Shown piece by piece: positions 17,310 to 58,106 of a DNA stretch of 64,000 bases; the first letter of the stretch is position 1, and every line of letters starts with the position of its first letter. Source of the stretch: an uncultured Gammaproteobacteria bacterium (lineage in GTDB: Bacteria > Pseudomonadota > Gammaproteobacteria > DRLM01); assembly GCA_963729605.1 (NCBI GenBank), contig CAVSNY010000007.1:1-64000 (forward strand), in the 5' to 3' direction. The position numbers and the translations under genes were made by a program. The notes below the pieces were generated by a model. The model was not told the DNA's origin and did no database searches. It saw only the letters and a list, made by a program, of their open reading frames with translations.

Positions 17310-17312
17310 GAC

Positions 17313-17855
17313 TCAGTCCTCCCCGTGCATGAGATAACTAAAATAGAAACGGCCGCCGACCGCGAGATCAACGGGCACCGTGAAGATTTGTTTGACGCCT
17401 TCCAGGAACATTTGGCTGTCTGCCTGACTGGTAATGTAGGCGGGCGTGCCGAAGCTGAATTTGCGCGTGGCGCTGAGATGGCGGATGGCGAGGCCGATGG
17501 CGGTATTGGTGAATTCGGCGAGGGCCTCGCTGACTTCCGCATTCAAAGTCGTAGCGTTTTCCTCGGTGCCCAGCATCTTGGCGCGCACCCGGTTGCCTAT
17601 CGCCAAGGCGGTGGCGAGATCGTGATTCATGACGATCTTGCCATCGACCGCGCCTTGTCTGCGGGTCACCAGGCAGACCGAGAAGCCTTTGAAGATGAAG
17701 GTGTCGAGCGCGTCTTGATAGGTCAGCAAGTCACTGGAGGCCTTTAAATCGGCCATGCTTTCCAGGGTGAGAATGGTTTCGCTGATAAACGGCACCAGTA
17801 TGTCGTTGCGCACAGTGGTGCGGCTATTGCCGAAATGATCGCCTGCGATCTGCAT
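17313..17855 (-). CDS. CheX-like phosphatase family protein
   Basis: ALAEFTN (E-x2-N) motif followed by P-containing strand; adjacent to the response regulator; start uncertain. Confidence 0.65.
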   Translation of the reverse strand: MQIAGDHFGNSRTTVRNDILVPFISETILTLESMADLKASSDLLTYQDALDTFIFKGFSVCLVTRRQGAVDGKIVMNHDLATALAIGNRVRAKMLGTEENATTLNAEVSEALAEFTNTAIGLAIRHLSATRKFSFGTPAYITSQADSQMFLEGVKQIFTVPVDLAVGGRFYFSYLMHGED

Positions 17856-18149
17856 AGATTTTTATCCGATGATCGGGTGGGTATGGACGGCATCGGATTG
17901 AAATCGGTTTTTCTGAAGTATGCTGGCCTTCTAATGTCTTCGGACAGGTGCTTATAGCCGGGCAAGCGCATCGTGCTGGCGCGGGTTTTTGGGACCAGTC
18001 CGGTAGGGTGGAAGCCCGAAAGACGTTCCACCACATGATCTAACCTGCCCCCGCACCACAAGCCAATCTCGGTTTCCTTGAAGAACCGGCGGCGATCCCT
18101 TAGAATCCGCCCCCTATGCATATCACGCCACCCTAGCGCTCCCCACCCC

Positions 18150-23974: not shown

Positions 23975-24353
23975 GACTAAATCCCGTATTTCTATGCGCG
24001 TTTTCATGAGCCCGGGGCTCGATTATTTATCGATTGGCGCCGGGATTTCTTAAGGCGGCGGACTGCCCGGCCTGCGCTTGGCCGGTAAAAACGCTGGGAA
24101 ATCAAAAGGTGTTTGAATGCGACGCCGGAATGGCGGCACGGCGCTAAAAGGCCAACACAGGGGTTATTTCGTAAACCCCATTGTAATTTTTACCGGCTCA
24201 TCTTGATTCAAATAAGCCTTTCAGGCCGCGTGGCCCGCTTTTCCGGACAAGGGCGGCGCAGCGGGCCTTTCACGATTTTTGCATCTGCAGGTTTGGTGGG
24301 CGCCACGTTGTTAAGTGCGCCGCGGGTCGCCAGCCATTACCGGAGAGCGGAAA

Positions 24354-25256
24354 ATGCAAAGAGCCTTATGGAAAGGCGCCATCAGCTTCGGCTTGGTGTA
24401 CATCCCGGTGCAGTTGTTCAGCGCCGACGACAGCCACGGACTCGATCTCGCCATGGTGGACAAACGTGATTTCTCCCCCATCGGCTATAAGCGCATCAAC
24501 AAACACACCGGCAAGGAAGTAGCGTGGGACCACATCGTCAAGGCCTATGAATACGAGGACGATCGCTACGTGGTGCTCACGGAGGCGGACCTCCGCCGCG
24601 CCAATGCCAAGGCCACCCGCACCATCGACATTTTGAGCTTCGTCGAGGCGGCTCAGATTCCGCCCGTCTACTACGAAAAACCTTATTATCTCGCCCCCGG
24701 CAAAGGCGGCGAAAAGGTGTACGCCCTGCTGCGCGAGGCGCTGTTGCGCTCGGAGAAAGTGGCTATTTCACAAATCGTCATCCGCACCAAACAGCACCTC
24801 GCCGCCCTGGCGCCCATGGACGACATGATCGTCTTGAACACCTTGCGTTATGGCGACGAGCTGCGATCGGCCGAGGAGTTGCACGTACCGCAAGGCGGAC
24901 TTAAAGAGTCCGGCATCAGCGCCAAAGAACTGGACATGGCGCTGACGCTCATCGCTGGCATGACGGAAGAGTGGGACGCCGGGCGTTATCGCGATACTTA
25001 TCGCGAGGACCTGTTGGCCTTGGTGAAAAAGAAGGTCAAGGCCCGGCAGACCAAAATCATCACCGAAGCCGATGACGACGAGGATTCCTCGCCGCCGTCC
25101 GCCCAGGTGATCGACTTGATGGCGCTGCTCAAACAAAGCGTCAACCGCAAGGGCACAAAATCCACGGGCAAAACCCCCGTCCGGAAAACGCGCGGCGGCA
25201 AAAGACCGGCCGCGAAAAAACCCGCGAAGACCGCCGCGAGATCGAAGACGGGTTGA
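24354..25256 (+). CDS. ku: Ku protein (NHEJ)
   Basis: WKGAISFGLV.IPV, KPYYLAP, YRDTY, VIDLMALL, basic tail. Confidence 0.96.
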   Translation: MQRALWKGAISFGLVYIPVQLFSADDSHGLDLAMVDKRDFSPIGYKRINKHTGKEVAWDHIVKAYEYEDDRYVVLTEADLRRANAKATRTIDILSFVEAAQIPPVYYEKPYYLAPGKGGEKVYALLREALLRSEKVAISQIVIRTKQHLAALAPMDDMIVLNTLRYGDELRSAEELHVPQGGLKESGISAKELDMALTLIAGMTEEWDAGRYRDTYREDLLALVKKKVKARQTKIITEADDDEDSSPPSAQVIDLMALLKQSVNRKGTKSTGKTPVRKTRGGKRPAAKKPAKTAARSKTG

Positions 25257-25259
25257 TTT

Positions 25260-27863
25260 ATGAAAACCAAAAAAAGGCCCGCCGTCCGTAACCAGCCGCT
25301 CGCCGATTACTGGCGGAAACGCGACTTCGATAACACGCCGGAGCCGCGCGGCAAACCGGCGAAACCCGGCAAGGCCCTCCGGTTCTTCATCCAGAAACAC
25401 GCGGCGCGGCGCCTGCATTATGACTTTCGTCTCGAACTCGGCGGAACCTTGAAGAGCTGGGCCGTCCCCAAGGGACCGAGCCTCGACCCCCGCGATAAAC
25501 GCCTGGCGGTGCGCGTCGAAGATCATCCCTTGGATTACGGCGATTTTGAAGGCGTCATCCCCGCGCATCACTACGGCGCCGGCAGCGTGCTGGTGTGGGA
25601 CAAGGGCGTCTGGCTACCCGAAGGCGATCCCGCGCAGGGCCTGCGCCAAGGCCATCTCAAGTTCGAGTTGCGCGGTGTAAAACTCACCGGCCGCTGGGCC
25701 TTGGTGCGCATGGGCACGCCCAAGGAGGACAAGGAAAACTGGCTGCTCATCAAGGAACGCGACGACGCGGCCAAGACCGGCGAGGCCGTCACCGAGTTGC
25801 AACCCGACAGCGTGCTCGGCGCCGCCGCTAAAAAAAACCTGGCCAGGGCGCGCGGAAAAACCGAAAAATCCGCCCTGAAGAAGAAAACCGCCGCCACGCA
25901 AGCAGTCGATGCGATCATCGGCGCGCGCAAAGCGGCGCTGCCCGATCAGATTAAACCGCAGCTGGCGACGCTCATCGATCGCGCGCCCAGCGGCGAAGCC
26001 TGGCTGTCGGAGATAAAATTCGACGGCTACCGTGCCCTCTGCAAGATCGCGCGCGGCGACGCCCGTCTCTATAGCCGCGGCGGCAATGACCGCACGCGCA
26101 AATGGCGGACGATCGCCGCCGCGGCGGCGCGGCTGCCGGTCGAACAGGCGTGGCTGGACGGCGAGGTGGTCGCCATCGACGACGACGGCGCCGTCAGTTT
26201 TCAACTGCTGCAAAACATCGAACGCGACCAGGCGCGCGGCCGCCTCGCCTATTACGTCTTCGATCTTCTTTATTTGAACGGCTACGACTTGCGCGGCGCG
26301 GCGCTGACGCAACGCAAGCGATTGCTGAAGCACGTGCTCGCCGAGGCGGGCGATCCGATTTTCTTCAGCGATCATCTCGACGGCGACGCGCCCGAGGTTT
26401 TCAAAAATGCCTGCGCCCAGGGTTTGGAAGGCATCATCGTCAAACGCGGCGACGCGCCTTACCAATCGGCGCGCAGCCGCGACTGGCTCAAGGTGAAATG
26501 CGTAAAACGCCAGGAGTTCGTGATCGGCGGCTACACCGATCCCGCCGGCCGCCGCGAAGAATTCGGCGCGCTGCTGGTCGGTGTCCATGACGCCGCCGGC
26601 CAGCTGCGTTACGCCGGCCGGGTTGGCACCGGCTTCGACGGCGCCACCTTGCGCGCGCTCGCCGAGAAATTTAAAAAGGTCGCGGCCAAAGCGCCGCCCT
26701 TTATCAATCCGCCCACCGGCGCGGAGGCGGCCGGCGTGCACTGGCTTAAACCGCAACTCATCGCCGAGGTGAAATTCGCGCAATGGACCGCCGCCGGGAT
26801 CATTCGCCACGCCGCCTTCGTCGGCCTGCGCAGCGACAAACGCAGCCGCGAGATACGCCGTGAAGAACCGCTGCCGGTCGCCGAGTTGGCGGCCGGCAAG
26901 AAGAAAGCCAAGGCCGCCGCGCGCAAACACGACGACATGCCCGATGAGCCGCGCGGCGGCGATGAACGGAACGCGACCGCCGCGGGCGTCACCTTGACCC
27001 ATGCCGATCGCGTACTGTTTCCGGCGATGGGTCTCACCAAGCTCGAGCTGGCGCAATATTACGAAGAGGTCGAAGCATGGATATTGCCCCACGTCACCCG
27101 CCGGCCACTGACGCTGGTGCGTTGTCCCGACGGCGTCGGCGAGCAATGTTTTTATCAAAAACACGTCAACAGGACCACGGTCAAAGGCATCGCCACCGTC
27201 GAGGTCCCGAGCGGCGGCGGCACGGCGACGTATATGACGGTCAAATCGCTCTCCGATCTGGCGGGCCTGGTGCAAATGGGCGTACTCGAGTTGCACACGT
27301 GGGGCGCGCACGCCGGCCGCCTCGATAAGCCGGATCGCCTGATCTTCGATCTCGATCCCGCGCCCGGCCTGCCGTGGCGGGAGGTGATAACCGCCGCGCA
27401 ATTGGTGCGCGGGCTGTTGGAAGAGATCGGTTTGATCAGTTTCGTCAAGACTACCGGCGGTAAAGGTTTGCACGTCGTGGTGCCGCTCAAGCCTGAACGG
27501 GGCTGGGACGAGGTCAAAGGCTTTTCCCGCGCCGTCGCCCATCATCTCGCGCGGACCCTGCCGGACCGTTACACCGCCAAGATGACCAAGCGCACCCGCA
27601 CCGGCAAAATTTTCATCGACTATCTGCGCAACGCCGCCGAGGCGACCGCGGTGGCGGCCTATTCGACGCGGGCCAAACCCGGCGCACCGGTCTCGACGCC
27701 GATCGCCTGGGATGAATTGAACGAGGATTTGCGTTCCGACAGTTTCAACGTCGCCAATCTCCGCGAACGCCTGCGGCGCTTGCAACACGATCCATGGGCT
27801 GACTACTTTTCGTCGCGGCAACGCCTCACCGCAAAAATGCTGCGGCTGTTCGCGACCGGATGA
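25260..27863 (+). CDS. ligD: DNA ligase D (PE-LIG-POL)
   Basis: QKHAARRLHYDFRLE; EIKFDGYR; FDLDP..KTTGGKGLH. Confidence 0.97.
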   Translation: MKTKKRPAVRNQPLADYWRKRDFDNTPEPRGKPAKPGKALRFFIQKHAARRLHYDFRLELGGTLKSWAVPKGPSLDPRDKRLAVRVEDHPLDYGDFEGVIPAHHYGAGSVLVWDKGVWLPEGDPAQGLRQGHLKFELRGVKLTGRWALVRMGTPKEDKENWLLIKERDDAAKTGEAVTELQPDSVLGAAAKKNLARARGKTEKSALKKKTAATQAVDAIIGARKAALPDQIKPQLATLIDRAPSGEAWLSEIKFDGYRALCKIARGDARLYSRGGNDRTRKWRTIAAAAARLPVEQAWLDGEVVAIDDDGAVSFQLLQNIERDQARGRLAYYVFDLLYLNGYDLRGAALTQRKRLLKHVLAEAGDPIFFSDHLDGDAPEVFKNACAQGLEGIIVKRGDAPYQSARSRDWLKVKCVKRQEFVIGGYTDPAGRREEFGALLVGVHDAAGQLRYAGRVGTGFDGATLRALAEKFKKVAAKAPPFINPPTGAEAAGVHWLKPQLIAEVKFAQWTAAGIIRHAAFVGLRSDKRSREIRREEPLPVAELAAGKKKAKAAARKHDDMPDEPRGGDERNATAAGVTLTHADRVLFPAMGLTKLELAQYYEEVEAWILPHVTRRPLTLVRCPDGVGEQCFYQKHVNRTTVKGIATVEVPSGGGTATYMTVKSLSDLAGLVQMGVLELHTWGAHAGRLDKPDRLIFDLDPAPGLPWREVITAAQLVRGLLEEIGLISFVKTTGGKGLHVVVPLKPERGWDEVKGFSRAVAHHLARTLPDRYTAKMTKRTRTGKIFIDYLRNAAEATAVAAYSTRAKPGAPVSTPIAWDELNEDLRSDSFNVANLRERLRRLQHDPWADYFSSRQRLTAKMLRLFATG

Positions 27864-35295: not shown

Positions 35296-36297
35296 GTGCC
35301 GCGTATTCGTTTCGAGCAACACACCTACGTTTTGGCCGATGACGAATCGGTGCTCGACGGTTTGACGCGGCACGGCGTCGCCGTCCCTTCTTCCTGCCGC
35401 AGCGGTATTTGCCAGACCTGTCTGATGCGCGCGGTGCACGGCGACGTGCCCGCGGCGGCGCAGCACGGCATCAAAGAAAGTCTGCGCGAACGCCGGTATT
35501 TCCTCGCCTGCTCGTGCAGGCCCACGGCCGACCTGGAAGTCGCCCTGCCCAGCGATGACGACGTCCCGCTCACCATGGCGGAGGTCATCGGCAAAGATCC
35601 GCTGAATGCCGACATCACCCGTTTCCGCCTGCGGGTACCGGCCGGTTTCGCGTATCGCGCCGGGCAATTCATCAATCTGCATCACCACGAACACGTGCGC
35701 AGTTATTCCCTCGCCAGCGTGCCGCAAACCGAGGATTATCTCGAGCTGCACGTCCAGCGCATCGACGCCGGCCGCGTGAGCGGCTGGCTGCATGACGAGT
35801 GCAAGTCGGGCGATCCACTCACCTTGCACGGTCCCTTCGGCGATGCTTATTACCGCAAAGGCGATCCCGACCAGGCCTTATTGCTGATCGGCACCGGCTC
35901 GGGCCTCGCGCCGCTGTGGGGCATCGCCCGCGACGCCTTGGCCCAAGGCCACCGCGGCGCCATCCATTTATTTCACGGCAGCCGCGCCGCCGCCGGACTC
36001 TATTTGGTGGACGAGCTGCGGGCGCTCGCGCAAGCCCATTCCAACTTCAGCTACACGCCCTGCGTTTCCGGCGGCGGGCCGGCGGAGAACGTCAGCGCGG
36101 GCCGGGCCAATGAAATCGCGCTGCAACAATTTCCACGACTGAAAGGCTGGCGGATCTTTTTGTGCGGCAACGCCGAGATGGTGAAGGGCGCCAAGAAAAA
36201 GGCCTTTCTGGCCGGCGCCGCCTTGCAAGACATTCACGCCGACCCCTTCGAATTCAGCGCAAAACCCGCCGCGAAAAACGCCGCCGCCCTGGCTTGA
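35296..36297 (+). CDS. 2Fe-2S ferredoxin/FAD-NAD(P)H reductase
   Basis: CRSGICQTC..C, RSYSLAS, GTGSGLAP, LCG. Confidence 0.92.
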   Translation: MPRIRFEQHTYVLADDESVLDGLTRHGVAVPSSCRSGICQTCLMRAVHGDVPAAAQHGIKESLRERRYFLACSCRPTADLEVALPSDDDVPLTMAEVIGKDPLNADITRFRLRVPAGFAYRAGQFINLHHHEHVRSYSLASVPQTEDYLELHVQRIDAGRVSGWLHDECKSGDPLTLHGPFGDAYYRKGDPDQALLLIGTGSGLAPLWGIARDALAQGHRGAIHLFHGSRAAAGLYLVDELRALAQAHSNFSYTPCVSGGGPAENVSAGRANEIALQQFPRLKGWRIFLCGNAEMVKGAKKKAFLAGAALQDIHADPFEFSAKPAAKNAAALA

Positions 36298-36422
36298 GCC
36301 GCGCGGCCCCGGCCTTAAACTGCGCGGCTGAAACATGAGTTCGTAGGCCGGCGTCCGCGCGTGCGATTTTGATTATCCCGCTCCACGAGAAGATGGCTCA
36401 TCGGCCAGCGCGGCCACGCCGA

Positions 36423-36956
36423 TCACGTCCCGTCGAAAAACGCCGCCTCGTCTTCGCTCAAGACGCCGGCCGGCGGGGACGGTTTCAGCGCCGCGGGCGC
36501 CGCGCGCCGCTCGTGGTTTGCCGCGACCCGGATCTTATCCAACAACAAACCGTATTCCCCTTTCACTTGCACGACGCGGAAGGTGTAAATCATCACGTCG
36601 GCGAGCGCCGCCAACCAGGTCCGCGCACCCGGCGGGGACTGCGGCGCCAGGGCGATCAAGCGCACGGGAAGCACCGCTTCGCGCAAAGCGGGATACAGGC
36701 GATACAACCAGGGTTCTTGTTGCGCCACCATGTCCGCCGCCCGCAATCCCGCCAGCAACACCGCGGCGGGGTCGGCGCCCATACTCACCAGGGTGGGACG
36801 CCGCGCGGCGTCCAGCGCCAGCAGCACGTCGCCCGGCACGGGGAAGGCATCATCCAGTAAATGGTGGTCGCCGATCAGTCCCGGCAGGGTTTCCATGGCC
36901 AGTCTTTTCAATATATCCGGCGTTACGTTCGCGATTGAGACGATGATCAAGCTCAT
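36423..36956 (-). CDS. Hypothetical protein (third gene of the ParA-CBM48 operon)
   Basis: SD GGGGG then ATG; coding-like; C-terminal LSEDEAAFF. Confidence 0.75.
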   Translation of the reverse strand: MSLIIVSIANVTPDILKRLAMETLPGLIGDHHLLDDAFPVPGDVLLALDAARRPTLVSMGADPAAVLLAGLRAADMVAQQEPWLYRLYPALREAVLPVRLIALAPQSPPGARTWLAALADVMIYTFRVVQVKGEYGLLLDKIRVAANHERRAAPAALKPSPPAGVLSEDEAAFFDGT

Positions 36957-37698
36957 AAGGCCCCCGCTTGGAATTATTGTGTGGGCCATCCTCCCGGCCC
37001 TTGCCGGCTTCCATGCGGGCTTCGCGCGCCAGGCGCAGAAAATGATTGAACGCGGTCAGGGCGATCCGTCCCGGCGCTTCGCCCAGGCCGTTCTCGAGCT
37101 CCACTATCCGCAGGCTGATCCCCAGAAAACGCGCACCGCCCTCCACCAGTTTTTCGGCGTATTGCCGCCGTTGGTTTTTATGTTCGGTCAAACACGCGAT
37201 CGCTAAACTCTCCGGCCGCGACACCGCCTTGATCCGCACATAGGTCCGCCGCAAGGCGTCCGCGCCCGGCAGCAACACGAAGAGGGCGCACGCGCAATAA
37301 TGCAAGAGGCCGGCGGACAAACGCGGCACGGGGAGCAGACAGCAGTGCGGAATCTTGCCGCGCTCGCCGAATACCTGTTCCAAACGCCGCCCGACCGCGG
37401 CCTCGTCATACCAATCATCCGCCCGCGTCATCGGCAAGACCAGGCGGCCGTCGTCGTCGGCCGGCGCCGGCCCATCCTCGCGGCGGCGGGACACGGCCAG
37501 CTCGATCACGTCGACGCCCTGGGCGCGGAGGGCGAGACGCAAACGCCTCGCCACCCCGTATTCCTCCGCGTCCGCGCAGCACACCGGCAACAGCACGGTC
37601 TGCGGCGGTCCCTCGCCGCGCTCGCTCAAAAAATAATGGCTGATCCGCCGCAGTCCCTCGCGGCCGTCGACCGGCGGGTCGAGGCCGGACCGCGGCAT
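36850..37698 (-). CDS. Hypothetical protein, possible degenerate MinD/FlhG-like fold
   Basis: Start overlaps the ParA stop (TGATG); DALRRTYVRIK and ARFLGISL recall the FlhG C-half; no Walker A. Confidence 0.7.
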   Translation of the reverse strand: MPRSGLDPPVDGREGLRRISHYFLSERGEGPPQTVLLPVCCADAEEYGVARRLRLALRAQGVDVIELAVSRRREDGPAPADDDGRLVLPMTRADDWYDEAAVGRRLEQVFGERGKIPHCCLLPVPRLSAGLLHYCACALFVLLPGADALRRTYVRIKAVSRPESLAIACLTEHKNQRRQYAEKLVEGGARFLGISLRIVELENGLGEAPGRIALTAFNHFLRLAREARMEAGKGREDGPHNNSKRGPYELDHRLNRERNAGYIEKTGHGNPAGTDRRPPFTG

Positions 37699-38798
37699 CA
37701 GCGCAGGACCCGCAACAGCGAATTGCTGCCGCCGAAGCTATTGGGCACCCGCATGGGATTGGCTGGGTCTTCCTGCCATTTGCCGCCGATGATGACCCGG
37801 TATTGATAGGCGCCGGGCGAGACCTTTAACACCTTTTGTATGGTGTCGTTGACGGTGCGGGTTTCCACCTCGTGATCGGGAATCCAGCCGTTGAAGTCAC
37901 CGGCGATCTGCATGTCCTTATTGATCAAATGATGGTAACTCAGCACCACCCGCCGCTCCCGGCCGTTTTCCATGCTCTCGCTGAAGGTCATGCCGGGCAC
38001 CCGCTGCATGCCGATCTCCGCGGTCTCGCGCCCGCGCCGCGGCGGCAGATCATGGCCGGTCAGCCATTCCACCAGTTCGGCGAAATCCTCGGCGGCGGCG
38101 GTGCGCGGCGCGTGATCGAGGAGCGGCCGGCCGAGATAGGCGGCCTCTTTCACCTTGACGGTGGATCGCACCCGCAGCGGGGTGACCTCGCGGGGCCAGC
38201 GCTCCTCGAGTTCCGCCAGCAGACGCCGGGTGATGCGGGAACGCAGATCGACCAGACTGGGCAGCAGATCGATCCGGATATCCAAATCATAACGGTCGCT
38301 CACCAGGTCGATGGTTTCCCGCAGCCGCGCCACGCCGTCCAAGGCATAAGGACTCAGGTCCACCGGGATCAACACCCGCGTGGCGGCGCGCAGCGCGTTG
38401 ATGGACAACATACCCAGGCCGGGCGGACAGTCGATGATGATGTGGTCGTAATAATTCGCCACCGGCTCCAATTGCTTGAGCAAGGTCTTTTCCCGTTCCG
38501 GTTTGGCCGCCAGCAGGTGTTCCACCCCCGCCAGGGTTATCGCCCCCGGAATCAGATCCACACCCGGCACCACCTTGTAAAAGATGACGTCCATCAGGGA
38601 CGCCGATCCCGCGAACACCTCATACAAACCCGGCAGCGCCGCGGCCGGTATCCCCAGCCCCAGGGACGCATGGCCTTGCGCGTCCATATCGATGAGCAAT
38701 ACCCGCAAACCCTTGCGTCCCAAACCGGCGGCCAGATTGATGGCCGTGGTGGTTTTGCCGCACCCGCCTTTTTGATTGGCGATCGCTATCACATTCAT
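37698..38798 (-). CDS. ParA/Soj ATPase fused to C-terminal AMPK-beta-like CBM48 glycogen-binding domain
   Basis: NQKGGCGKTT, IDMDAQG, IDCPP; C-terminal AGDFNGW..PGAYQYRVIIGGKWQEDPANP..FGGSNS; SD GGAGG. Confidence 0.9.
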   Translation of the reverse strand: MNVIAIANQKGGCGKTTTAINLAAGLGRKGLRVLLIDMDAQGHASLGLGIPAAALPGLYEVFAGSASLMDVIFYKVVPGVDLIPGAITLAGVEHLLAAKPEREKTLLKQLEPVANYYDHIIIDCPPGLGMLSINALRAATRVLIPVDLSPYALDGVARLRETIDLVSDRYDLDIRIDLLPSLVDLRSRITRRLLAELEERWPREVTPLRVRSTVKVKEAAYLGRPLLDHAPRTAAAEDFAELVEWLTGHDLPPRRGRETAEIGMQRVPGMTFSESMENGRERRVVLSYHHLINKDMQIAGDFNGWIPDHEVETRTVNDTIQKVLKVSPGAYQYRVIIGGKWQEDPANPMRVPNSFGGSNSLLRVLR

Positions 38799-39391
38799 AC
38801 ACTGTCCTCCGTTAGCAGAGCCCACACGGCGTGACGCCGCATCCTCAGGTATGAAGGCATCCCTGCCCATTGCCGCCACGGCGCGTCCCGCCGCGTTGTG
38901 CCGCCCCATGCCCCGGCCCATGACGGCGGCACCGCGAATGCGACAGTTTTTGCCCGTCCTTGCAACGGGACTGAAGAGGGCAACCGTCTTCACCGTCTCG
39001 TGACGTCATGTAATGGCGCGCACGCCCGCTCCGTCCCAAATCGGCGAGCCGGTCGTAAACGGCATGCGGCGGATTTGCAACCGGCGACCTCGCCGGCGCC
39101 GAGGACGTGCTCGGTCAGGGCGGGCATTCGCATCCAACAGGAGAAGGGAAACCAGACGGGGAGATCAAAGGAATCGGCGACGGAGGGGATGAAACCTCCC
39201 TTCCGGCGGCCTGAGGACGGCCGGCGCCGGATAAATTCAAGCGAGCTTCACTAGGGCGGAGCGAGCTTCCCGCGGCAACCATACCACCCCCTTTGCCGGG
39301 AGGCATTTTTAACGCTTAAGTAAAGTTGCCGAACCAGGGCTTGTCAAGCCGCGGGCGAGTGCGCCGCCGTTTCGTGCCGCATCGCTCGTGA

Positions 39392-41404
39392 TCAACTCGA
39401 ACCCAGAAAATTCCGCAGATTGGCGAGATGGGCCTGACCGCGCTCCTGGCGTTTTTCGGGATCGGCCTGGCGGTCGCCGCCTTCCCACTGCAAATCATCG
39501 GCGGGCAGCTCCGCCAAAAACCGGCTGGGCTCGCGTGGCAGCATGTCGGCGCCGCGTTTGCGTTTGGCGGCGATGGTGAAGGTCAAGGTCTTGCGCGCGC
39601 GGGTGATGCCCACATAGGCGAGCCGCCGTTCTTCCTCGAGCTTGCCTTCCTCGACGCTGCTGCGGTGCGGCAGACACTCCTCCTCCATCCCCACCAGAAA
39701 CACATGGGGAAACTCCAGCCCCTTGGCGGCGTGCAGGGTGAGCAGATGCACGTTGTCGGTCTGGGCGTCCTCTTCGTTGCGCTCCAGGATATCCATCAGG
39801 CTCATGTGCGCCACCAGCTCGGCGAGGGTTTTCTCCTCGGTGTTTTGTTCGGCGATGCGCTGCATCCAGGCCACCAGCTCCCAGACGTTGGCGATGCGCT
39901 TCTCGGCGGCGCGATCGTCCTTGGAATTGTCGCGCAGCCATTGTTCGTAGCCGCTGCCGGCGATCATCTCCCGCACCACCGCGATGGGATCGCCGCGCCG
40001 GCCGCGGTCGCCGAGATCGGTCAGCCAGTTGGCGAAATAGTCGAGGCGATCGGCGGCGCGCTCCGACAAGTGCTGGCGCAGTCCCAGCTCGAAGCAGGCG
40101 GCGAATAAACTGACGCCGCGCGCGCTGGCATAGTCCGCCAGCTTTTCCAAGGTGGTTGGACCGATCTCGCGGCGCGGCACGTTGACCACCCGCAAAAACG
40201 CGCTGTCGTCCTCGGGGTTGATCAGCAAACGCAGGTAAGCCATCAGGTCGCGCACCTCGCTGTGGGCGAAGAACGAGGTGCCGCCGCTCAAATAATAGGG
40301 GATGCGCTGCTCGCGCAAGGCCTTTTCGAACAGGCGCGACTGATGATTGCCGCGATAAAGAATCGCGTAGTCGCGGTAGTCGGTGCGGTGTTTGAATTTG
40401 TGGCTGAGAATTTCCGAGATCACCGTCTCGGCCTCGTGTTCGTCGCTGCGGGTCTCGATGACCCGCAGCGGATCGCCGTAGCCCAGCTCGCTCCACAATT
40501 TTTTCTCGAAGAGGTGGGGATTGTTGGCGATCAGCGCGTTGGCGGCCTTGAGGATGCGGCCGCTGGAGCGGTAATTCTGCTCCAGCTTGATCACCTTCAA
40601 GCCGGGAAAATCCTCCTGCAGCAGCGCGAGATTTTCCGGTGCCGCGCCGCGCCAGGCGTAGATCGATTGATCGTCGTCGCCGACCACGGTGAGCGCACCG
40701 CGCACCCCCACCAGGGAACGCACCATATGATATTGGCTGGCGTTGGTGTCCTGGTATTCGTCCACCAGCAGATAACGGATGCGGTTCTGCCAGGCGCCGA
40801 GGATATCCGGCTGTTCGCGGAACAGCAGCGCAGGCAGCAAAATCAAGTCATCGAAATCGACGGCGTTATAGGCCCGCAAATGCCGCTGATACTGCGCGTA
40901 GACGCTGGCCGCCAACACCTGCGCCGCGTCGCCGTCGGCCGCGGCGAGCGCCTGCTCGGGGTCGAGCAGCAGGCCTTTCCAGCGCGAGATCTGCCACTGG
41001 ATATTATTCACCTGGCTGTCGTCGTTGAACTCGCGGCGCAGCAGCTCGCGCACCAGGCCCGCGCTGTCGCCGGCGTCGAAAATCGAAAAGCCGGCGCGGT
41101 AGCCCAGCGCCGCCAGCTCGCGGCGGATGATGTTCAAACCCAGGGTGTGAAAGGTCGAGACCTGCAAACCCTTGGCCTCCTTGCCGCCCAGCAGTTCGCC
41201 GACCCGGCCCTTCATCTCGCGCGCCGCCTTGTTGGTGAAGGTGACCGCCGCGATGTGGCGCGCCTCGATGCCGCATTCCTTGATGAGATAGGCGATCTTC
41301 TGGGTGATGACGCGGGTCTTGCCGCTGCCGGCGCCCGCCAGCACCAGCAGGGGGCCGTCGAGATAACGCACCGCGGCGCGTTGAGCGGGATTCAAGCCGG
41401 ACAT
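39392..41404 (-). CDS. rep: ATP-dependent DNA helicase Rep
   Basis: AGAGSGKT, VDEYQDTN, ILYRGNHQSR, TLHAAKGLEF, EERRLAYVGITRA. Confidence 0.95.
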   Translation of the reverse strand: MSGLNPAQRAAVRYLDGPLLVLAGAGSGKTRVITQKIAYLIKECGIEARHIAAVTFTNKAAREMKGRVGELLGGKEAKGLQVSTFHTLGLNIIRRELAALGYRAGFSIFDAGDSAGLVRELLRREFNDDSQVNNIQWQISRWKGLLLDPEQALAAADGDAAQVLAASVYAQYQRHLRAYNAVDFDDLILLPALLFREQPDILGAWQNRIRYLLVDEYQDTNASQYHMVRSLVGVRGALTVVGDDDQSIYAWRGAAPENLALLQEDFPGLKVIKLEQNYRSSGRILKAANALIANNPHLFEKKLWSELGYGDPLRVIETRSDEHEAETVISEILSHKFKHRTDYRDYAILYRGNHQSRLFEKALREQRIPYYLSGGTSFFAHSEVRDLMAYLRLLINPEDDSAFLRVVNVPRREIGPTTLEKLADYASARGVSLFAACFELGLRQHLSERAADRLDYFANWLTDLGDRGRRGDPIAVVREMIAGSGYEQWLRDNSKDDRAAEKRIANVWELVAWMQRIAEQNTEEKTLAELVAHMSLMDILERNEEDAQTDNVHLLTLHAAKGLEFPHVFLVGMEEECLPHRSSVEEGKLEEERRLAYVGITRARKTLTFTIAAKRKRGADMLPREPSRFLAELPADDLQWEGGDRQADPEKRQERGQAHLANLRNFLGSS

Positions 41405-43515: not shown

Positions 43516-44454
43516 TTACTTTTTATCCATGTCGTCGTTCGTGATTGGTCTCGGATCGACCGAATCGACCAACTGCGCCAGCATCGGTTTGCTGGCCTCG
43601 CCGAAATAAATAGAGCGGTGCGGAAAAGGAATTTCTATCCCCGCGCTGTCGAAGGCCTTTTTCACGCGGCGCTGAAACTCCCGCCCGACCTCCCATTGCT
43701 TGATGGGGTGGGTTTTAAGCCGGCCTTTGATGATTACCGCCGAGTCGCCGAATTTATCCACGCCGAAGACCTCCACATCCTCCTGCATCAGCAGACCGAA
43801 GCGCGGATCCTGGCGCAGCTCCGCCCCCACGCGATGTAGCACCTCCACGACCTGATCGGTATCTTCTTTGTAAGCCACCCTGATCTCAAACACGAAGGCG
43901 GACCATTCCCGCGTCATATTGGCCAGGGTAGTGATACTGCCGTTGGGAAAGACGTGCACCACCCCGGCCAGATCGCGCAGGACGATGGTGCGGAAGTTGA
44001 CCCGTTCCACCAGACCGCCGGTGCCGTTGATGATGGCCACGTCGCCCACCCGCACCTGATTCTCGAGGATCATGAAAAAGCCGGAGATGATGTCGCGCAC
44101 CAGATTTTGCGCGCCGAAACCCACCGCCAGGCCGACGATGCCGGCGCTGGCGAGGATGGGACCGACGTCGATACCCACTTCGCGCAACACCAGTAAAAAA
44201 CCCATCAGCCAGACCACGATGACCACGCCTTGCCGCAACAGGCGCACCAGGGTTTCGGCGCGTTTGGCCGCCTCGGTCGGCACTTCGCCGGCCTCCTCCC
44301 CCTTGTGGACCAGGCTGCGCTCCAGCCGGCGCAACAAGCTGCGCACGACCAGCAGGAGTATCCACACCACGATCAGGATCAACAGGATCCGCATGCCGCT
44401 GAAAATAATATCCCGCCACTCGACCGTACTGAAATACTCTTGCAATAACTCCAT
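43516..44454 (-). CDS. MscS family mechanosensitive channel
   Basis: GLAVGFGAQNLVRD, VGDV, FPNG, IEIPFP. Confidence 0.93.
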   Translation of the reverse strand: MELLQEYFSTVEWRDIIFSGMRILLILIVVWILLLVVRSLLRRLERSLVHKGEEAGEVPTEAAKRAETLVRLLRQGVVIVVWLMGFLLVLREVGIDVGPILASAGIVGLAVGFGAQNLVRDIISGFFMILENQVRVGDVAIINGTGGLVERVNFRTIVLRDLAGVVHVFPNGSITTLANMTREWSAFVFEIRVAYKEDTDQVVEVLHRVGAELRQDPRFGLLMQEDVEVFGVDKFGDSAVIIKGRLKTHPIKQWEVGREFQRRVKKAFDSAGIEIPFPHRSIYFGEASKPMLAQLVDSVDPRPITNDDMDKK

Positions 44455-44487
44455 CGGACCAAACCTCGCGTTTTAGATAGTCGCCAT

Positions 44488-46875
44488 TTAACGGCCCAGC
44501 CGCTCGGCCAGCGGCCGATACTGCAAGCCGTAAAACATCTCGAGATAACGGCGGGTCTCGTCCCGTTCCAGATTCGTTACGTATTTCCAGAAACCGTAAA
44601 TACGCGACAGGGTCATCATCCGCTCGGCATACAGCTCCCAGGTGTAGCGGCTGCGCACGCGCTGCACCGCGCCGCCGGCGATTTTTTCCCAATAGGTCTC
44701 GTCGGCGGCGCAACGTTCGAAGAAATCGGCCATGCGGTCCGCGGCGCGGTCACCGTGATTGGGATCGATGTGAAATCCGGATACGCCGTCGACGATGATT
44801 TCCAAAGGGCCGCCGTACATGGTGGCGAAGGTCGGCAGGCCGGACGCCATCGCCTCGATCACGGTAAGACCGAAGGCCTCGAACAGCGCCGGCTGAACGA
44901 AGGCGCCGCGGCGGTCGGCGATGTAGCGGTACAGTTCACCGCTGAGGTTTTTGTCGAGGCGTAAGCCCAGCCAGCGCAGTTCGCCATCCAGTTGATGCGC
45001 ATCTATCAATTCATGCATGCGCGCGATCTGATGCTGTTCCTCGGCGTCGCCGGAGCGGGCCGCGTCCACGTAACCGCCCACCACGACCAGGTTGGCCGCC
45101 TCGCGCAACCGCGGATTGTTGCCGTACCATTCGACCAGGCCGGTGATGTTCTTGATGCGGTCGAGACGGGCCATGGTGAAGAGCAAGGGTTTGTTGGCGT
45201 CGCTGAGCGCGCCGCGGCAGTCGGGATAATCGCGCTGATAAATCATCGCCTCGATCTCGGCATGGAGGCCGCTCAGGCGCCGCGCCGTTTCATGATAGGG
45301 AAAATAGACCTCGGCGTCGGCGCCGGGCGAGACGATGTTGAATTTCGGGTCGAAGGGATCCATGCCCTGCACCACCCGATACAGGCCGGGCATGGTGTAG
45401 GCGCTGTAACTTTCATATTGACCGACGCTGTCCTCGCGGCCGGCGATTTCCTGATAGGTGCTGGTTATGATGAAATCCGCCGCGTTCATCGCGATCAAGT
45501 CCGCGGTGAATTGGCAGCTGAAATGATACTGCGGCTCGTTGTCGCGCCAGTAAAGATCGGACAGCAGATATTTGGTCTTCTCCAGGGCGTGGGCGATATT
45601 GCACTGGGTGACATGCAGGCGTTGCGACATCAACGTCGCCACCAGATTGCCGTCGGAGTAATTACCGACGATCAGATCCGGCCGGCCGCTCAATTCGGCC
45701 AGCACTTCCTTTTCGGCCTCCACCGCGAACCGTTCCAGATAGGGCCAGATTTCGAAGCGCGAAATCCAGTGCGGCACCACCTCGCCCTGCGCGCCGCGAA
45801 ACGGCACGCGCAAGATGCGCGCGTTGCGGGTGCCGACCACCGATTCCAGGCGCTGATCACAGCAGGTGCCCGGCGGCGCGTCGGGAATGAGACGGGTGAC
45901 GATGAGAATTTGCGGTTCGATATCCAGTCCCTGTTCGTCGAGCCGGGCGCGCATCTCTTTTTCCAGGGCGCGCACTTGATCGAGAATGTACACCACCTGG
46001 CCGCCGGTGTCGGGCAGACCCAGCACGTTGGCCTGGCCGAAGTAACCGTGCGGCGACAGGATCGTCATATTGAAGATCATCGGCACCCGGCTCAGGAATT
46101 GTTCGAGCGCCGCCGGCGCCGGCGCCTCGAGCAGATCCGAGAGCAAGGTGATGGTCTCGCGCATCCGTTCGACATCGCGGCCCCAGCCGATCTCCAGACC
46201 CAAGGCCTGCAAGGCCGGGCCCACGACATCCCAGCCGGCGGTGCGCTCCTGGCCGCTGAGATAGGCGTCGGCGTGGCGCAGGGCCCGGCGCAAGTCCGCC
46301 ATCTCGCTGATCCGGTTATTGAGCATCAACTGGCGGCCCTGGCATTGATGCACCCGCAGAAAATCGAGCAGACGCCGGTCGCCCTTGCCCAGTTCCTGAA
46401 ACAGTTGGCTCGACAAACGGCGATTGAGAAATTCGACCCCGCGGCCGATGGAGCGCGCCTCATGCAGCTTGGGAAATTCGCGATTGAAGGGCCCGATGTC
46501 GAATTCCAGCGTCCACTCGTTGCCGTCGCCGCCGCCGATCAGGCGTTCCTTGAACTGGAGATACACGGCGGTGGAAACCGTTTCGATCTGCAAGGATTCG
46601 AGATGGATGCGTAAATAATTCCAGCGCGCCACATAACGGCGGGTGGCGAAATAAAGCCACGGTGTCCCCACCGCCGCCTCTTGCGTGATTCTGATGGTGT
46701 CCGCCAAGGGCGAATCCAGCAATGCCGTCTGCCCGTGCTCGCGACAAAAGGCGTTGAACTCGTCCCATAATTCGGAGCGCAATAAAAACGGTCTACCAAG
46801 GGCCGCGTAACGCCGCAATAACAGATAGACGGCGTCGCGGTGGGTCTGCACGAAGCTGGCGATGTCTTCACTCAT
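44488..46875 (-). CDS. Sucrose synthase
   Basis: [51 protein letters not shown]. Confidence 0.96.
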
Positions 46876-49030
46876 GGGACACCCCCTCCCGGCCGTCGGC
46901 CTCGCTCATGGCGCCGAAGAAGTCATAATGCTCGATGCCTTCCAAGATGCCCCAGGCATAATGACCGTCGGCGAAATAGATGCGCTCGCGGCCGCGCAAT
47001 TTCTCCAGCTCTTCACTGTGATTGCCGACCACCACGCCCAGGGTGTTGCCGGTCAGCATTTCTTCATCGTTGCCGGAATCGCCCACCACCAGAATGTGCT
47101 CGACGGGGATGCCCCATTTCATCGCCAGATAGCGGATGGCGCAACCTTTGGAGGCGCGCACCGGCAACAGATCGAGATACAGACCGTGGGAATAGACCAC
47201 ATTGGCGTGCAGCTTGCGGCGGCGCAGGCGGCGGGATATTTCGGCGATGGGCGGCGCCTCGGGGGCGACGAAGTAACTGAGCTTGAAGGGCAGTTGCTCG
47301 CTGGCGGGCTGCGGCAGAATGCCCGGTATATCCCGCATGGCTTCCTGCAACAGCGCGGGCTGCCAGCGGTAAGCGAGATGACGCTGATAACCCACGTCCG
47401 ACATGTGGCGCGGTCCGTAATAGATTTCGGTGCCGACCGCGGTGACGATCAAGTCGGGCACCGGCACTTGCCATTCTTTCAATATTTGCAGGGCACTCTC
47501 CAAGCGCCGCCCGGTGGCGACGCCGAACCCCACCCGGCCGTTGGTCCGCCGCAGACGTTCGACCAATTTCTTGAGCGCGGACCGGTCGCCGATCAAGGTA
47601 TTGTCGATGTCGCTGACCAGCAAACGGTCGGCGGTCGGCAAGGGATTTCTCTCCGCCACCGCCCGCTGGCTGCGTTGAGGTTTGTCGTGCAGGGTGTCGA
47701 TGGATTTCATATAACTCTCCACGTGGGAAGACCAGGAAAAATTTTGGGCGCCGGCCAGACCCGCCTCCGACCACCGCGTCCAACGCGCGTCGTCGCTCAA
47801 GGCGGAATGGATGGCCTCGCCCATCGCCTTGGCGTTCAGGGGATCGATGAGCAGGCCGTTCCGGCAGACCTCGATGATGTCGCGCGGCCCGCCGTCCTCG
47901 GTCGCCACCACCGGCAGACCGCTGGCCGCCGCCTCGATCAAGGTCAAACCGAACGGCTCGGTGAGCGCGGGATTGACGAACAAGCCGCGACTTTCCGCCG
48001 CCAGCCGGTAAAGATCCGGCACGTCATCGGATTGATGGTGTTTCGGATAGGCGACTTTGCCATAAAGATCGTAGCGGTCGATCAGCAATAGAATTTCGGT
48101 CAACACGCCGCGCGCGCTTTTATCCATCGCGGCGATGTCGTCGCGATTGCCGGCGACCAGGATCAGATTGGCCCGCTCGCGCAACGCGGGATGTTCGCCG
48201 TAGGCCTTGATCAGAGTGGCGATGTTTTTGCGTTCGTCGGCGCGCGACAAGGCGAGGATCATCGCTTGGCCGGGGTCGCGGAGAAAACGGCGAATATCCG
48301 GGTAAATCCCCGGTTTTTTCGTTTGCGTATCCGTCGGGTAGAAATGGGTGAGATCGACGCCGGGCGGTATCACCCGCATCCGCGCCGGCTGATAATTGTC
48401 GTAGATGCGGTATTGGCGCTCGACTTCCTGACGGGTACTCGCCACCACCAGCGCGGCGTTGTCGAGAGCGAATTCCTCGGCCTCGATGCGCTGGGTCATA
48501 TTGTATTGCTTTTCGATCACCTCGTTTTTCACGCCTTGATCGAGCAGGCGGCGTTTCTTTTCCCGACCCAGCGAATGACCGGTGAACACCAGCGGCACGC
48601 CGAGCAAGGCGGCCAGCCGCGCGCCGACGTAACCGGCGTCGGCGTAATGGCTGTGAATCACGTCCGGCACCCGTCCTATCCGGCGGATGTGTTGCAAGGC
48701 ATGATCGGCGAAGCTGTCGAGATGGGGCCACAACACTTCCTTGCGTAGGTAGCGGCGCGGCCCGCAGGGAATGCGCACGATGCGCGCCTTGGCCGCGAGT
48801 CGTTCTTCCGGCACGGCGTAGCTGTCATTCACTTTGGGATCGCTGATTTGACGAGTGAGCAGATCGACCCGCGCCACGCGGGGATGGGCGGCGAGCGCGG
48901 CGGCCAACTCGACCACGTATTTGATCTGGCCGCCGGTGTCGGCGTCGCGGCCCAACTCCATATCGTATCCGCGCACCAGGCCATGCACGCTGATGAGCAT
49001 GATGTATAAACCTTCGGCTTGCTGCTTCAT
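46868..49030 (-). CDS. sps: Sucrose-phosphate synthase with C-terminal SPP (HAD) domain
   Basis: [28 protein letters not shown]; HAD DIDNT, GDSGND. Confidence 0.95.
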
Positions 49031-49947
49031 GCCGACCAGTCCCGCAAATAGCGCTGATATAGCGCCCGATCCTCGGCAATCGCGCCACGCTGGCGACACA
49101 CCGCGGCGGCGAAATCCGCCGCGCGCTCGGCGAGCACCGGCAGCGCCCAGCCGTTCAACAAGCCGCATATCGCGACCGCGCTGAACGCATCGCCCGCGCC
49201 GACGCTGTCGATCAAGCCGCTGACCGCCACCGGCGCGGCCTGATGAATTTCCTGCTCGGTAATCAAAATGGCGCCGCGCTCGCCGCGCGTCACTATCAAC
49301 AACTCGCCGCCGCAGGCGCGCCGTAAACCGTCCGCGCCGTCGAGCAGATCCGCCTCGTCGCGCAAACGACGCTGCAGCAGCACCGCCAATTCGTGTTCGT
49401 TGAGTTTGATCCAGCGCGCACGCCGCAAGGCGTCCTCCAGCCAAGCGAGCCGCCACCAGGGATCGCGCAGATTGATGTCGAGAAACACCGGCACGCCGCC
49501 GTCCCGCACGATGTCCAAGCCGGCACGGGCGGTCGCATGACGGGCGATCAGGCTGCCGTGATACAACAAATCAGCCGGCTGCCGATCCAGCTCGGCCCGC
49601 AGCGGCGCCGCGGCGATGAAGTCATAGGCCTGCTCGGCCAGGATATCGAAGCGCGGCTCACCGTCGACGAAACCGACCTGTACCCGGCCGGTGGGATGCG
49701 CGGAATCCCGCTGCACGGCGCGCGCATCCATGTCCCACGCCGCCATCGCCGCGATGACCTGCGCGCCCAATTCATCGTCGCCGATCCGGCTGATCAATAG
49801 CGGGGAGAGACCAAAACCGCGCAGATGCCAGGCCACGTTGAACGGCGCGCCGCCCAGAGTCGCGGTCCCGTCGGGATAGACGTCGTGCAATACCTCTCCG
49901 AATATGAGAGGCCGCGACGCCGACACGGCTACACGATTTTGTTTCAT
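49027..49947 (-). CDS. PfkB family carbohydrate kinase (fructokinase-like)
   Basis: GGAPFNVA, DINLR, DSVGAGDAF. Confidence 0.92.
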   Translation of the reverse strand: MKQNRVAVSASRPLIFGEVLHDVYPDGTATLGGAPFNVAWHLRGFGLSPLLISRIGDDELGAQVIAAMAAWDMDARAVQRDSAHPTGRVQVGFVDGEPRFDILAEQAYDFIAAAPLRAELDRQPADLLYHGSLIARHATARAGLDIVRDGGVPVFLDINLRDPWWRLAWLEDALRRARWIKLNEHELAVLLQRRLRDEADLLDGADGLRRACGGELLIVTRGERGAILITEQEIHQAAPVAVSGLIDSVGAGDAFSAVAICGLLNGWALPVLAERAADFAAAVCRQRGAIAEDRALYQRYLRDWSA

Positions 49948-50549
49948 ACGGCTTCCAATCGCTGCGGTGGCATATCGAAACACACCGTCTAAAAAATGCT
50001 CGACACCGCGTTATGCGCGGCTGATTTTTGATTTAACGCTGCAAACGGCGGCTGAGGACCGTATACCGGAAGGTCCGGTTTTTGGTGATGGCATCCCCGC
50101 ATTTCGCGGAAATACGCCAGTATCAATGATCTTTCGACGCGGCATGCGCCTAAAAATCGCGTATTAAATTGAGTGCTGATATCGACTCATGGGAATTTCG
50201 TGCCAAAAGACCTTAACATTTATCGGCGGTGATTTCAAAGATACGCGGCGAAAAGCCGCGTGGAGAGATAGATTATGAAGCCGCTTTTCCGTAAATTTCC
50301 GTTGAATGAAAGAATTTTTCCACTGATCGGCGCTCGCGCGGCGGACGGCGGCGCAGAGCCGCCGGCTGCGCGAGCGGATGGTAAATTTTACACGGAGGTG
50401 AGCGGTGGCTTGAAGTTATGGGGTATTTGAATCAACCCGGAGGACCGCCGGTCGATATCGATCCGACCACGCCGACACGGCCGTAAGAGACCCGCGACGC
50501 AATAACTTCATGCCGGATTGGAGTGCGTGGTCAATGTAGAAACGGAAAC

Positions 50550-57971: not shown

Positions 57972-58003
57972 GTAGCCTGGGTTGAGCGGGAGCGAAACCC
58001 GGG
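57972..58003 (+). repeat. GTAG-type REP
   Basis: GTAGCCTGGGTTGAGCGGGAGCGAAACCCGGG. Confidence 0.7.
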
Positions 58004-58046
58004 AGTCCACCGTGTCACCTACAAACAACGTGTACGCAGATTATCG

Positions 58047-58106
58047 TAATAACAGCCAAATTCAAACACGCGGGGTGCGCGTGTGGACTGGCGCATCTTG
58101 TTCAAC
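58047..58106 (-). other. Degenerate attC-like site
   Basis: GTTGAAC-aagatgcgccag..hairpin..ttgaatttggct-GTTATTA after the DUF2442 fragment. Confidence 0.4.

Follow-up and report, generated by a model that had tools for sequence, protein, structure and literature searches.

Three tightly packed open reading frames (ORFs) lie on the minus strand of a 64,000-nucleotide stretch of an uncultured gammaproteobacterium of the GTDB lineage DRLM01 (the window; positions 1 to 64,000 of contig CAVSNY010000007.1, GenBank assembly GCA_963729605.1), at 37698..38993, 36850..37698 (282 aa) and 36423..36989 (188 aa). The first contains the core gene of the system, ParA-CBM48 (37698..38798, minus strand, 366 aa), which encodes a ParA ATPase (Pfam AAA_31) fused to a carbohydrate-binding module (CBM; Pfam AMPK1_CBM) and which is considered here as a possible organiser of glycogen on the nucleoid. 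Its start was set at 38798 (MNVIAIANQKGG), within the longer ORF, and homologues share the start MxxIAIANQKGG.

The ATPase domain is of the Soj type and occupies residues 1-250 (38049..38798, minus strand). AAA_31 was matched on residues 1-174 (E 3.8e-51, 174 bits against a cut-off of 27), the motifs KGGCGKT, DMDAQ and DCPP were found in the translation, and the protein carries the ParA/MinD signature of a deviant Walker A motif with its signature lysine (K10/K15), a Walker A' aspartate (D37/D39) and a Walker B aspartate (D123). K10, K15, D37 and D123 are each kept in all 62 aligned family members, and the Walker A, A' and B motifs in 60-62 of these 62 homologues, which come from Gammaproteobacteria, Omnitrophota, Planctomycetota and metagenomes. 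In NCBIfam the N-terminal part groups with ATPases of the ParA, MinD and BcsQ types, under every equivalog cut-off (114.5 bits against 180 for ParA_partition). Sequence matches among solved structures included ParA (PDB 8ray, E 4e-44) and the chromosomal ParABS proteins TtSoj (1wcv, E 2.2e-35) and HpSoj (6iub, E 3.4e-35), with which the domain aligns end to end and shares the deviant Walker A motif and two of the four DNA-binding positions; ParA-CBM48 differs from these proteins in scoring below the ParA_partition cut-off, in the absence of a ParB partner and in the addition of a C-terminal CBM.

Soj's basic patch for DNA binding comprises R182, R194, R208 and R211 in TtSoj, equivalent to R189, K201, R215 and R218 in BsSoj, and in the available text of the same source mutagenesis implicates BsSoj R189 and R218 in DNA binding and nucleoid interaction (PMC6393308). 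A HMMER alignment to TtSoj placed R186 of ParA-CBM48 at TtSoj R182 (BsSoj R189) and K215 at TtSoj R211 (BsSoj R218), with R188 and K217 also basic. The position of R186 is basic in 60 of 62 homologues and that of K215 in 59 of 62. DNA binding and nucleoid binding by ParA-CBM48 are predicted from these aligned residues.

A flexible linker of about residues 251-286 (37941..38048, minus strand) follows, the length of which varies across the family: the inter-domain segment has 39 residues in the window protein and 33-81 in the remaining short forms that were listed, and in four long forms (P0047-P0050, 532-641 aa) it is an acidic, low-complexity stretch of 196-307 residues. Residues 287-364 (37707..37940, minus strand) form a CBM48 module of the AMPK-beta glycogen-binding type, as indicated by Pfam PF16561 and by alignment to AMPK beta1 and beta2 CBM chains. 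The PF16561 match is marginal (29.4 bits against a gathering cut-off of 26.8) and reached 32.8 bits in a whole-genome scan, in which it was the sole match in the 3.48-Mb, seven-contig assembly; the orthologue in genome G123 scored 47.1 bits, and that in genome G045 had no PF16561 match at E<=1e-5. GDFNGW, YQYR, GKWQEDP and GGSN are all present and align with AMPK beta CBM structures (PDB 1z0n, 4y0g, 2f15) at E 2.4e-6 to 4.4e-5, about 3e-6 in the comparison of fold families by sequence. The fusion of a Soj-type ATPase to an AMPK-beta CBM48, which the preliminary description of this locus had proposed from the same motifs, is thus borne out by both domain matches.

The ligand site of the module is strongly conserved. 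In AMPK beta1 glycogen binding is lost on the substitution W100G or K126Q and reduced by W133L, according to the available part of the source (PMC6274970), and the positions equivalent to these in ParA-CBM48, as counted on the alignment to 1z0n, are W305, R334 and W341. Both tryptophans are kept in 62 of 62 homologues, the position of R334 holds arginine in 54, lysine in one and glutamine in seven, and little or no variation occurs in the G-x-F-N-x-W and W-Q-x-D-P motifs around them. The top solved relatives of the module, comprising AMPK beta, pullulanase, SEX4 and LSF1, are all alpha-glucan binders, and ParA-CBM48 is predicted to bind glycogen on the basis of its aligned residues. It differs from AMPK beta (PMC6274970) in having a ParA ATPase as its partner instead of a kinase scaffold and an arginine in place of K126. 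Since the protein begins directly with the ParA fold and lacks an N-terminal extension, its CBM should be cytoplasmic.

Conservation of the CBM was compared with that of the ATPase domain and of neighbouring genes. Averaged over 1891 pairs, pairwise identity was 0.61 in the CBM, compared with 0.52 in the ParA domain; the homologue set was partly seeded with the CBM itself and is hence biased towards conserved CBMs. In loci reached through the pseudo-ATPase encoded downstream, independently of CBM similarity, the CBM was 47-61% and the ParA domain 48-56% identical. Against syntenic relatives the CBM was 73-94% and the ParA domain 54-87% identical, compared with 80-90% for sucrose synthase (SuS), 75-83% for MscS, 77-99% for Rep and 68-85% for the M23 peptidase, so that the CBM varies to a similar degree as SuS, MscS, Rep, globin and M23. 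No sign of rapid CBM divergence was therefore seen, and the module evolves no faster than either the ATPase domain or syntenic housekeeping genes.

The second gene (36850..37698, minus strand, 282 aa) shares one base of its start with the ParA-CBM48 stop (TGATG), which supports the translational coupling suggested in the preliminary description; the two downstream genes, however, which had there been taken as unknown, are both identifiable by fold. Pfam, NCBIfam and PADLOC gave no match for the second gene product. Its AlphaFold model (pLDDT 73, pTM 0.65) had its best Foldseek matches in FlhG, FleN and MinD (E 1.3e-7, probability 1.00, TM about 0.5), and the protein is read as a MinD/FlhG-fold pseudo-ATPase without Walker A, conserved over about residues 1-205. 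A profile built from two sequences (those of the window and G045) and searched against 1.84 billion proteins returned 66 cluster representatives at E<=1e-3, with a credible Pfam family in none of the 32 representatives scanned. In a 44-row alignment of the family no row contained a GK[ST] P-loop, and a nearly invariant N-terminal helix, RLxxISHxFLS (including L16, I19, S20, F23 and L24), was preceded by arginine residues and followed by an alpha/beta core. This helix is a candidate ParA-contacting element.

Among 400 gammaproteobacterial genomes the profile gave strong full-length matches in ten, the window's own genome included, and partial matches in G366 and G210, while weak core-only matches (E 1e-9 to 1e-15) occurred in about 160; 16 of the 18 weak-tier loci that were fetched hold a ParA-like ATPase in the same short locus (tblastn). 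Because its homologues lie beside CBM48-encoding genes or share a locus with ParA-like ones, and with the modelled fold in agreement, the second gene is regarded as a ParA/MinD derivative.

The third gene (36423..36956, minus strand) encodes 177 aa from its likely start at 36956 (MSLII, preceded by GGGGG), the longest ORF extending from 36989, and overlaps the poorly conserved 3' tail of the pseudo-ATPase ORF by 107 nt. Pfam, NCBIfam and PADLOC again gave no match, and the family is tiny, with seven clusters in 5.8 billion proteins. The top four Foldseek matches of its AlphaFold model (pLDDT 82) were EndoMS/NucS (E 1.8e-3 to 9.8e-3, probability 1.00), followed by other PD-(D/E)xK proteins, and its nearest named cluster in the ESM Atlas was NucS_C, indicating a NucS-like restriction-endonuclease (REase) fold. 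Nuclease activity appears unlikely because the conserved D49 is followed by S58-F-D60 in place of (D/E)xK. A C-terminal LSxxExxFF tail is conserved in the family.

Homologues of the fusion were collected with a search seeded by the linker and CBM region, which gave 127 candidates, 47 of them at E<=1e-3; in precomputed Pfam annotation PF13614 and PF16561 occur together in every one of these 47. On contigs sampled at one genome per species, the fusion is full-length in 16 of the 56 related loci, four from Gammaproteobacteria and 12 from Omnitrophota, Planctomycetota and Phycisphaerae. All carriers are uncultured organisms or known from MAGs (metagenome-assembled genomes). Strong CBM matches were found in 14 of 401 genomes of the class, representing nine families and 11 genera, and a single weak and different match in G205. 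Within the window's family ParA-CBM48 is present in nine of 12 genomes, comprising all four of its own genus and all five of a second genus. In Omnitrophota and Planctomycetota the gene lies in a fixed, housekeeping-looking block conserved in at least eight MAGs (L010, L014, L016 and L017, at about 3500-8000), in the order pstCAB-phoU, a porin-like gene, a gene for an apparent single-span protein, ParA-CBM48, genes for a small membrane protein and a lysine-rich protein, and rpsO-pnp.

The cassette with its downstream genes was found in 12 of the 400 sampled gammaproteobacterial genomes, the window's own included. The pseudo-ATPase gene directly follows the CBM48-encoding gene in all 11 strong or partial loci from other genomes (12 with the window's), and an REase-fold homologue comes next in nine of these 11, none being detected in the G286 or G096 loci. 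In a protein search of 61 related genomes the pseudo-ATPase was present in one other, G045, where it follows ParA-CBM48 and precedes an REase-fold homologue. Neither accessory gene was found in a protein search of the 11 other genomes of the window's family, eight of which have the CBM, and the accessories are therefore dispensable. Relatives with an 87% identical ParA-CBM48 and the same flanks have 130-300 bp where the window has 1.4 kb; the corresponding site holds a cation antiporter gene in a third relative and unrelated genes in a fourth. The idea that both accessory genes are spurious ORFs, raised when tblastn against the first 57 loci matched the window alone, was rejected on the G045 homologue and the profile search, and a repeat or insertion sequence was rejected for the 1.4-kb segment, which is single-copy in the genome. 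In G172, a one-contig genome, the ParA ATPase domain is missing and a 116-aa CBM-only ORF (L074, 1136-1486) sits between a MerR-type gene and the pseudo-ATPase and REase-fold genes, while G336 of the same genus keeps the full fusion.

In eight other gammaproteobacterial genomes ParA-CBM48 has directly upstream of it a helix-turn-helix (HTH) gene of the MerR family (Pfam MerR_1), whose product of about 160 aa bears a conserved GDVVLVF...ALTGQEW motif at its C-terminus. Loci with this MerR-type gene include L097 (1999-2388), L099 (2002-2376), L101 (1335-1703), L102 (7984-8463), and L006-L009 and L011 (upstream of position 6001). In five Chromatiales/Thioalkalispiraceae loci a gene of this type adjoins the closest CBM-less ParA (46-48% identical); none is present in the window genome, in the window's whole family or in G123. 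The MerR-type protein may be an ancestral partner of this ParA clade.

The glycogen synthesis gene glgA accompanies ParA-CBM48 throughout the sampled Gammaproteobacteria. The preliminary description had counted a frequent lack of glycogen genes among carriers as evidence against its reading, and no such lack was seen in this class: glgA exceeded its cut-off in all 14 strong gammaproteobacterial carriers (nine families, 11 genera), whereas it did so in 196 of the 400 genomes sampled from the class, or in 194 of 398 once the unpublished G151 and G305 are set aside. The naive hypergeometric probability of this co-occurrence, which is inflated by kinship and shared ecology, is 3.6e-5 by genome and 2.8e-4 by genus. 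In the window genome itself glgA is present (573.9 bits), glgB gave two matches above the family cut-off, of which one is divided between two frames, and glgC is fragmented across several frames. At 1124068-1127529 of contig 7, outside the window, neighbouring glgB and glgC copies are spread over several frames with internal stops. The split glgB and glgC are either pseudogenes or products of assembly indel errors, and in the latter case the long 3' tail of the pseudo-ATPase gene (36850-36956) is possibly an artefact too.

ParA-CBM48 is one of six AAA_31 genes in the genome and has no dedicated ParB. Neither downstream gene encodes a ParB domain (Pfam, NCBIfam) and no ParB adjoins the cassette, unlike in a ParABS system, although no search for parS was made. 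The strongest ParB_N match of the genome (E 2.9e-39) lies at contig positions 69200-69481, about 30 kb off and outside the window, in agreement with the earlier statement that no parB is nearby. It adjoins a separate ParA at 69908-70435, the two forming a canonical parA-parB pair, and a second, weak ParB_N match (E 9.0e-7) is at 893099-893251. As the canonical pair is about 30 kb from the cassette, the replication origin may lie near the window.

The cassette is flanked on one side by genes for a TonB receptor, GatB, an M23 peptidase, a globin and an FNR-type reductase, and on the other by genes for Rep, an FAD/Rieske oxidoreductase, MscS, SuS, SPS-SPP and fructokinase. The cluster of SuS, bifunctional SPS/SPP and fructokinase genes (44488..49983; 43516-49983 with MscS) is 5.7 kb from the cassette, close to where the preliminary description had placed a possible source of sugar nucleotide, but the association goes no further than a gene order shared by one family, and rep and mscS intervene; the order SuS-MscS-Rep-ParA-CBM48 is conserved down to the family-level relative L005, in which SuS is 80% identical. 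Elsewhere the neighbours are different, with thyA, folA, FBPase and thiDE in G045 and genes for a DsbA-like protein, an aldose-1-epimerase-family protein and sulfur metabolism in G123. The sugar-metabolism genes near the cassette thus differ by lineage (FBPase in G045, the aldose-1-epimerase-family gene in G123).

Housekeeping neighbours are present in all three annotated loci, and defence genes in none. PADLOC, in a 2023 release that cannot include the ParA-CBM system, returned nothing defence-specific for the cassette and its neighbours, its matches being a 34-residue P-loop match for ParA-CBM48 and generic UvrD/helicase, methyltransferase, HTH and oxidoreductase matches. A Gabija-like reading of the upstream UvrD-type helicase, matched as GajB, was rejected since the protein is a Rep equivalog (1005.7 bits against a cut-off of 951.45). 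A scan of 36200-39500 gave no sigma-70 promoter, and terminator-like sites were at chance level. Elsewhere in the window, the bacterial non-homologous end joining pair of Ku and a full-length LigD (with phosphoesterase, ligase and primase-polymerase domains) is encoded at 24315-27863, and three 2-kb bins (1-2000, 16001-18000 and 58001-60000) have a lower G+C content of 0.49-0.53, against about 0.60-0.65 elsewhere.

Taken from sequence, these features fit a cytoplasmic protein that would hold an invariant ligand, an alpha-glucan, at one end and the nucleoid at the other in an ATP-dependent manner. The reading preferred here, to which a probability of roughly 45% is assigned, is that ParA-CBM48 is an ATP-gated tether keeping glycogen (alpha-glucan) granules on the nucleoid and spread along it. 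Through the Soj basic patch, ATP-bound dimers would attach to chromosomal DNA without sequence specificity, while the two CBM48 modules of each dimer, carried on flexible linkers, would grip alpha-glucan chains at the granule surface. Many weak bonds of this kind would hold granules on the nucleoid against coalescence at a pole, so that both daughters inherit reserves, and ATP hydrolysis would free the tether and make tethering dynamic. The pseudo-ATPase and the inactive REase-fold protein would act as optional modulators tuning the ParA cycle. Such tethering and positioning, and the role given to the accessories, are inferred. In E. coli, as described in the available part of one study, glycogen gathers at the old pole, and division becomes asymmetric as a result (PMC12706056).

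McdA/McdB and other orphan ParA/MinD cargo systems (PMC10241942, PMC11407121) likewise involve an orphan Soj-like ParA without ParB, and ParA-CBM48 shares with them a predicted ATP-dependent nucleoid binding that would distribute a cytoplasmic body. In McdAB, according to the available text, cargo binding falls to a separate partner, whose basic, disordered N-terminus stimulates the ATPase (PMC10241942), whereas ParA-CBM48 has its cargo module in cis and an activator is not established; its cargo would also be a polysaccharide and not a protein shell or DNA. The pseudo-ATPase, with its nearly invariant N-terminal helix preceded by arginines, invites comparison with a McdB-type partner, but it was not found in eight ParA-CBM48 carriers of the same family. 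With the cargo bound in cis and no evident activator on the cargo, a nucleotide-gated tether is favoured over a classical ParA ratchet. The nucleoid-surfing ATPase with a polysaccharide cargo envisaged in the preliminary description is accordingly retained in its predicted ligand and nucleoid binding, while a dynamic tether, with a logic like that of PhaM, fits better than surfing.

The closest functional precedents, PhaM, PhaF, PhaH and AlgP, are described in the available text of a 2025 review of organelle positioning as bifunctional proteins that tether polyhydroxybutyrate and polyphosphate granules to the nucleoid (PMC13052382). They resemble the proposed tether in that one polypeptide has a granule-binding and a non-specific DNA-binding end, with granules spread on the nucleoid and polar aggregation prevented (PMC13052382; PMC3556143, in the parts available). 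They are not homologous to ParA-CBM48, being histone-like or helix-hairpin-helix DNA binders whose ATP dependence the review lists as unknown; the DNA binder of ParA-CBM48 is a ParA ATPase, so that tethering would be nucleotide-gated, and the storage polymer differs. The word 'glycogen' does not occur in PMC10241942, PMC11407121 or PMC13052382, and no claim of ParA/MinD-driven glycogen positioning was found in full-text literature searches, the coverage of which excludes most subscription journals.

The architecture is already in print with a rival interpretation, and the preliminary description, which knew of no characterised example, is superseded on this point. In the available text of their preprint, Li, Burroughs and Aravind (bioRxiv 10.64898/2026.10.19.760177, October 2026) describe a 'ParA-CBM' conflict system (branch ConB5) of ParA with a C-terminal AMPK1_CBM, in two variants. 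Variant 1 has an upstream protein with a single transmembrane segment and a periplasmic CBM, to which the upstream apparent single-span protein of the Omnitrophota and Planctomycetota loci, itself not tested for a CBM, is probably equivalent. Variant 2 adds an REase and another ParA that evolves fast, and inactivity is predicted for the two of them; the architecture of the window is identical, including both inactive proteins, and the folds found here agree. The inactive and fast-evolving pair is taken in the preprint as a signature of conflict systems, and immunity is proposed from rapid divergence of the CBM. The MerR-type upstream gene is seen here, and 'MerR' does not occur in the available text of the preprint.

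On that proposal the CBM would sense infection by a carbohydrate cue, for example glycosylated proteins of the virion, fragments of the cell wall or a depletion of polysaccharide induced by phage, and ParA would multimerise on DNA to contain the invader, with the inactive REase adding DNA sensing. Its published match to this exact architecture is joined by the sporadic distribution of strong matches (14 of 401), by fast-evolving accessories that come and go, being present in the window genome and not found in 11 others of its family, and by the deletion of the ParA domain in G172. The premise of rapid CBM divergence, however, was not seen, the contact tryptophans being kept in 62 of 62 homologues and the CBM being at least as conserved as the ATPase domain. 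Other differences from the published account are the housekeeping context and the presence of glgA in every sampled gammaproteobacterial carrier. An immune role would have as its hallmarks a sensor domain that diverges rapidly and a place in a defence island; here the CBM is conserved and all three annotated neighbourhoods are free of defence islands, with no defence-specific match in a PADLOC release that predates the system. ParA-CBM48 also occupies a fixed syntenic site in every sampled genome of two genera, and an effector domain is absent, and an immune function is considered unlikely.

The same conserved CBM and DNA-binding features could instead serve a sensor of glycogen status, the CBM reporting on reserves as it does in AMPK. 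Sequestration of ParA-CBM48 on glycogen, or its release, would set the level of ATP-bound ParA on the nucleoid and so control some DNA-linked process, for example the initiation of replication, the choice of a division site or transcription; the MerR-type protein would be a partner in most lineages. Soj-type ParAs are known in regulatory roles, for example on DnaA in B. subtilis. The MerR-type gene next to ParA-CBM48 in eight other gammaproteobacterial genomes, and next to the CBM-less ParA in five Chromatiales/Thioalkalispiraceae loci, would suit such a role, as would the inhibition of AMPK by glycogen through its CBM, reported in the available part of PMC6274970. The window's whole family nevertheless keeps ParA-CBM48 without the MerR-type gene, a target is not identifiable, and a linker of 33-307 residues suits a tether better than an allosteric sensor, all of which leaves this explanation doubtful. 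It is far less probable still that the CBM48-like module does not bind glycans and is a module for proteins or other ligands, or that it localises a glycogen-metabolising enzyme, with ParA positioning some other cargo. The marginal Pfam score (29.4 against 26.8), the G045 orthologue without a PF16561 match at E<=1e-5, and the replacement of K126 by arginine, or by glutamine in seven of 62 homologues, are what such a view can draw on, and they are set against the invariant equivalents of W100 and W133 within invariant or nearly invariant motifs, the uniformly alpha-glucan-binding solved relatives and the glgA gene in 14 of 14 carriers.

Several observations weigh against the tether as well. The preliminary description had the Soj DNA-binding positions basic, which is exact for R186 and K215, but only two of the four positions match, the other two being E198 and S212, although R200, R211 and K217 are basic neighbours of these. 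In classical ParA ratchets hydrolysis is stimulated by a cargo-bound partner, and ParA-CBM48 has none established. Its distribution is sporadic in the class, the accessories are fast-evolving (23-34% identity where ParA has 48-56%), and the comparison of identities carries the seeding bias given above. The glgA co-occurrence is moderately informative, given a background of 49% and carriers that may share an ecology. Outside Gammaproteobacteria, five carriers included two with glgA, two with glgB over the cut-off and three with phosphorylase, and the Phycisphaerae MAG G412, which may be incomplete, had none of the three. In Omnitrophota and Planctomycetota the upstream protein has an apparent single span as read from sequence, and the periplasmic CBM given in the available text of Li et al. 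hints at extracytoplasmic glycans.

No carbon reserve is more widespread in bacteria than glycogen. Known cargoes of ParA/MinD ATPases include DNA, complexes of proteins and organelles with a protein shell, to which ParA-CBM48, if the tether reading is true, would add glycogen. It is put forward tentatively as the first ATP-driven organiser of a polysaccharide storage body, combining motor and adaptor in one polypeptide on the nucleoid, with the pseudo-ParA and dead-nuclease pair as an optional, lineage-specific governor of the ATPase cycle. The protein provides a clean test case of housekeeping positioning against immunity for orphan ParAs, as the published prediction, in its available form, and the evidence presented here point different ways. 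It would also offer synthetic biology a one-gene tag for placing alpha-glucan bodies. For the bacteria that carry it, a nucleotide-gated tether would answer how reserves are shared between daughters, and would solve the polar accumulation and unequal inheritance of glycogen described, in the text available, for E. coli.

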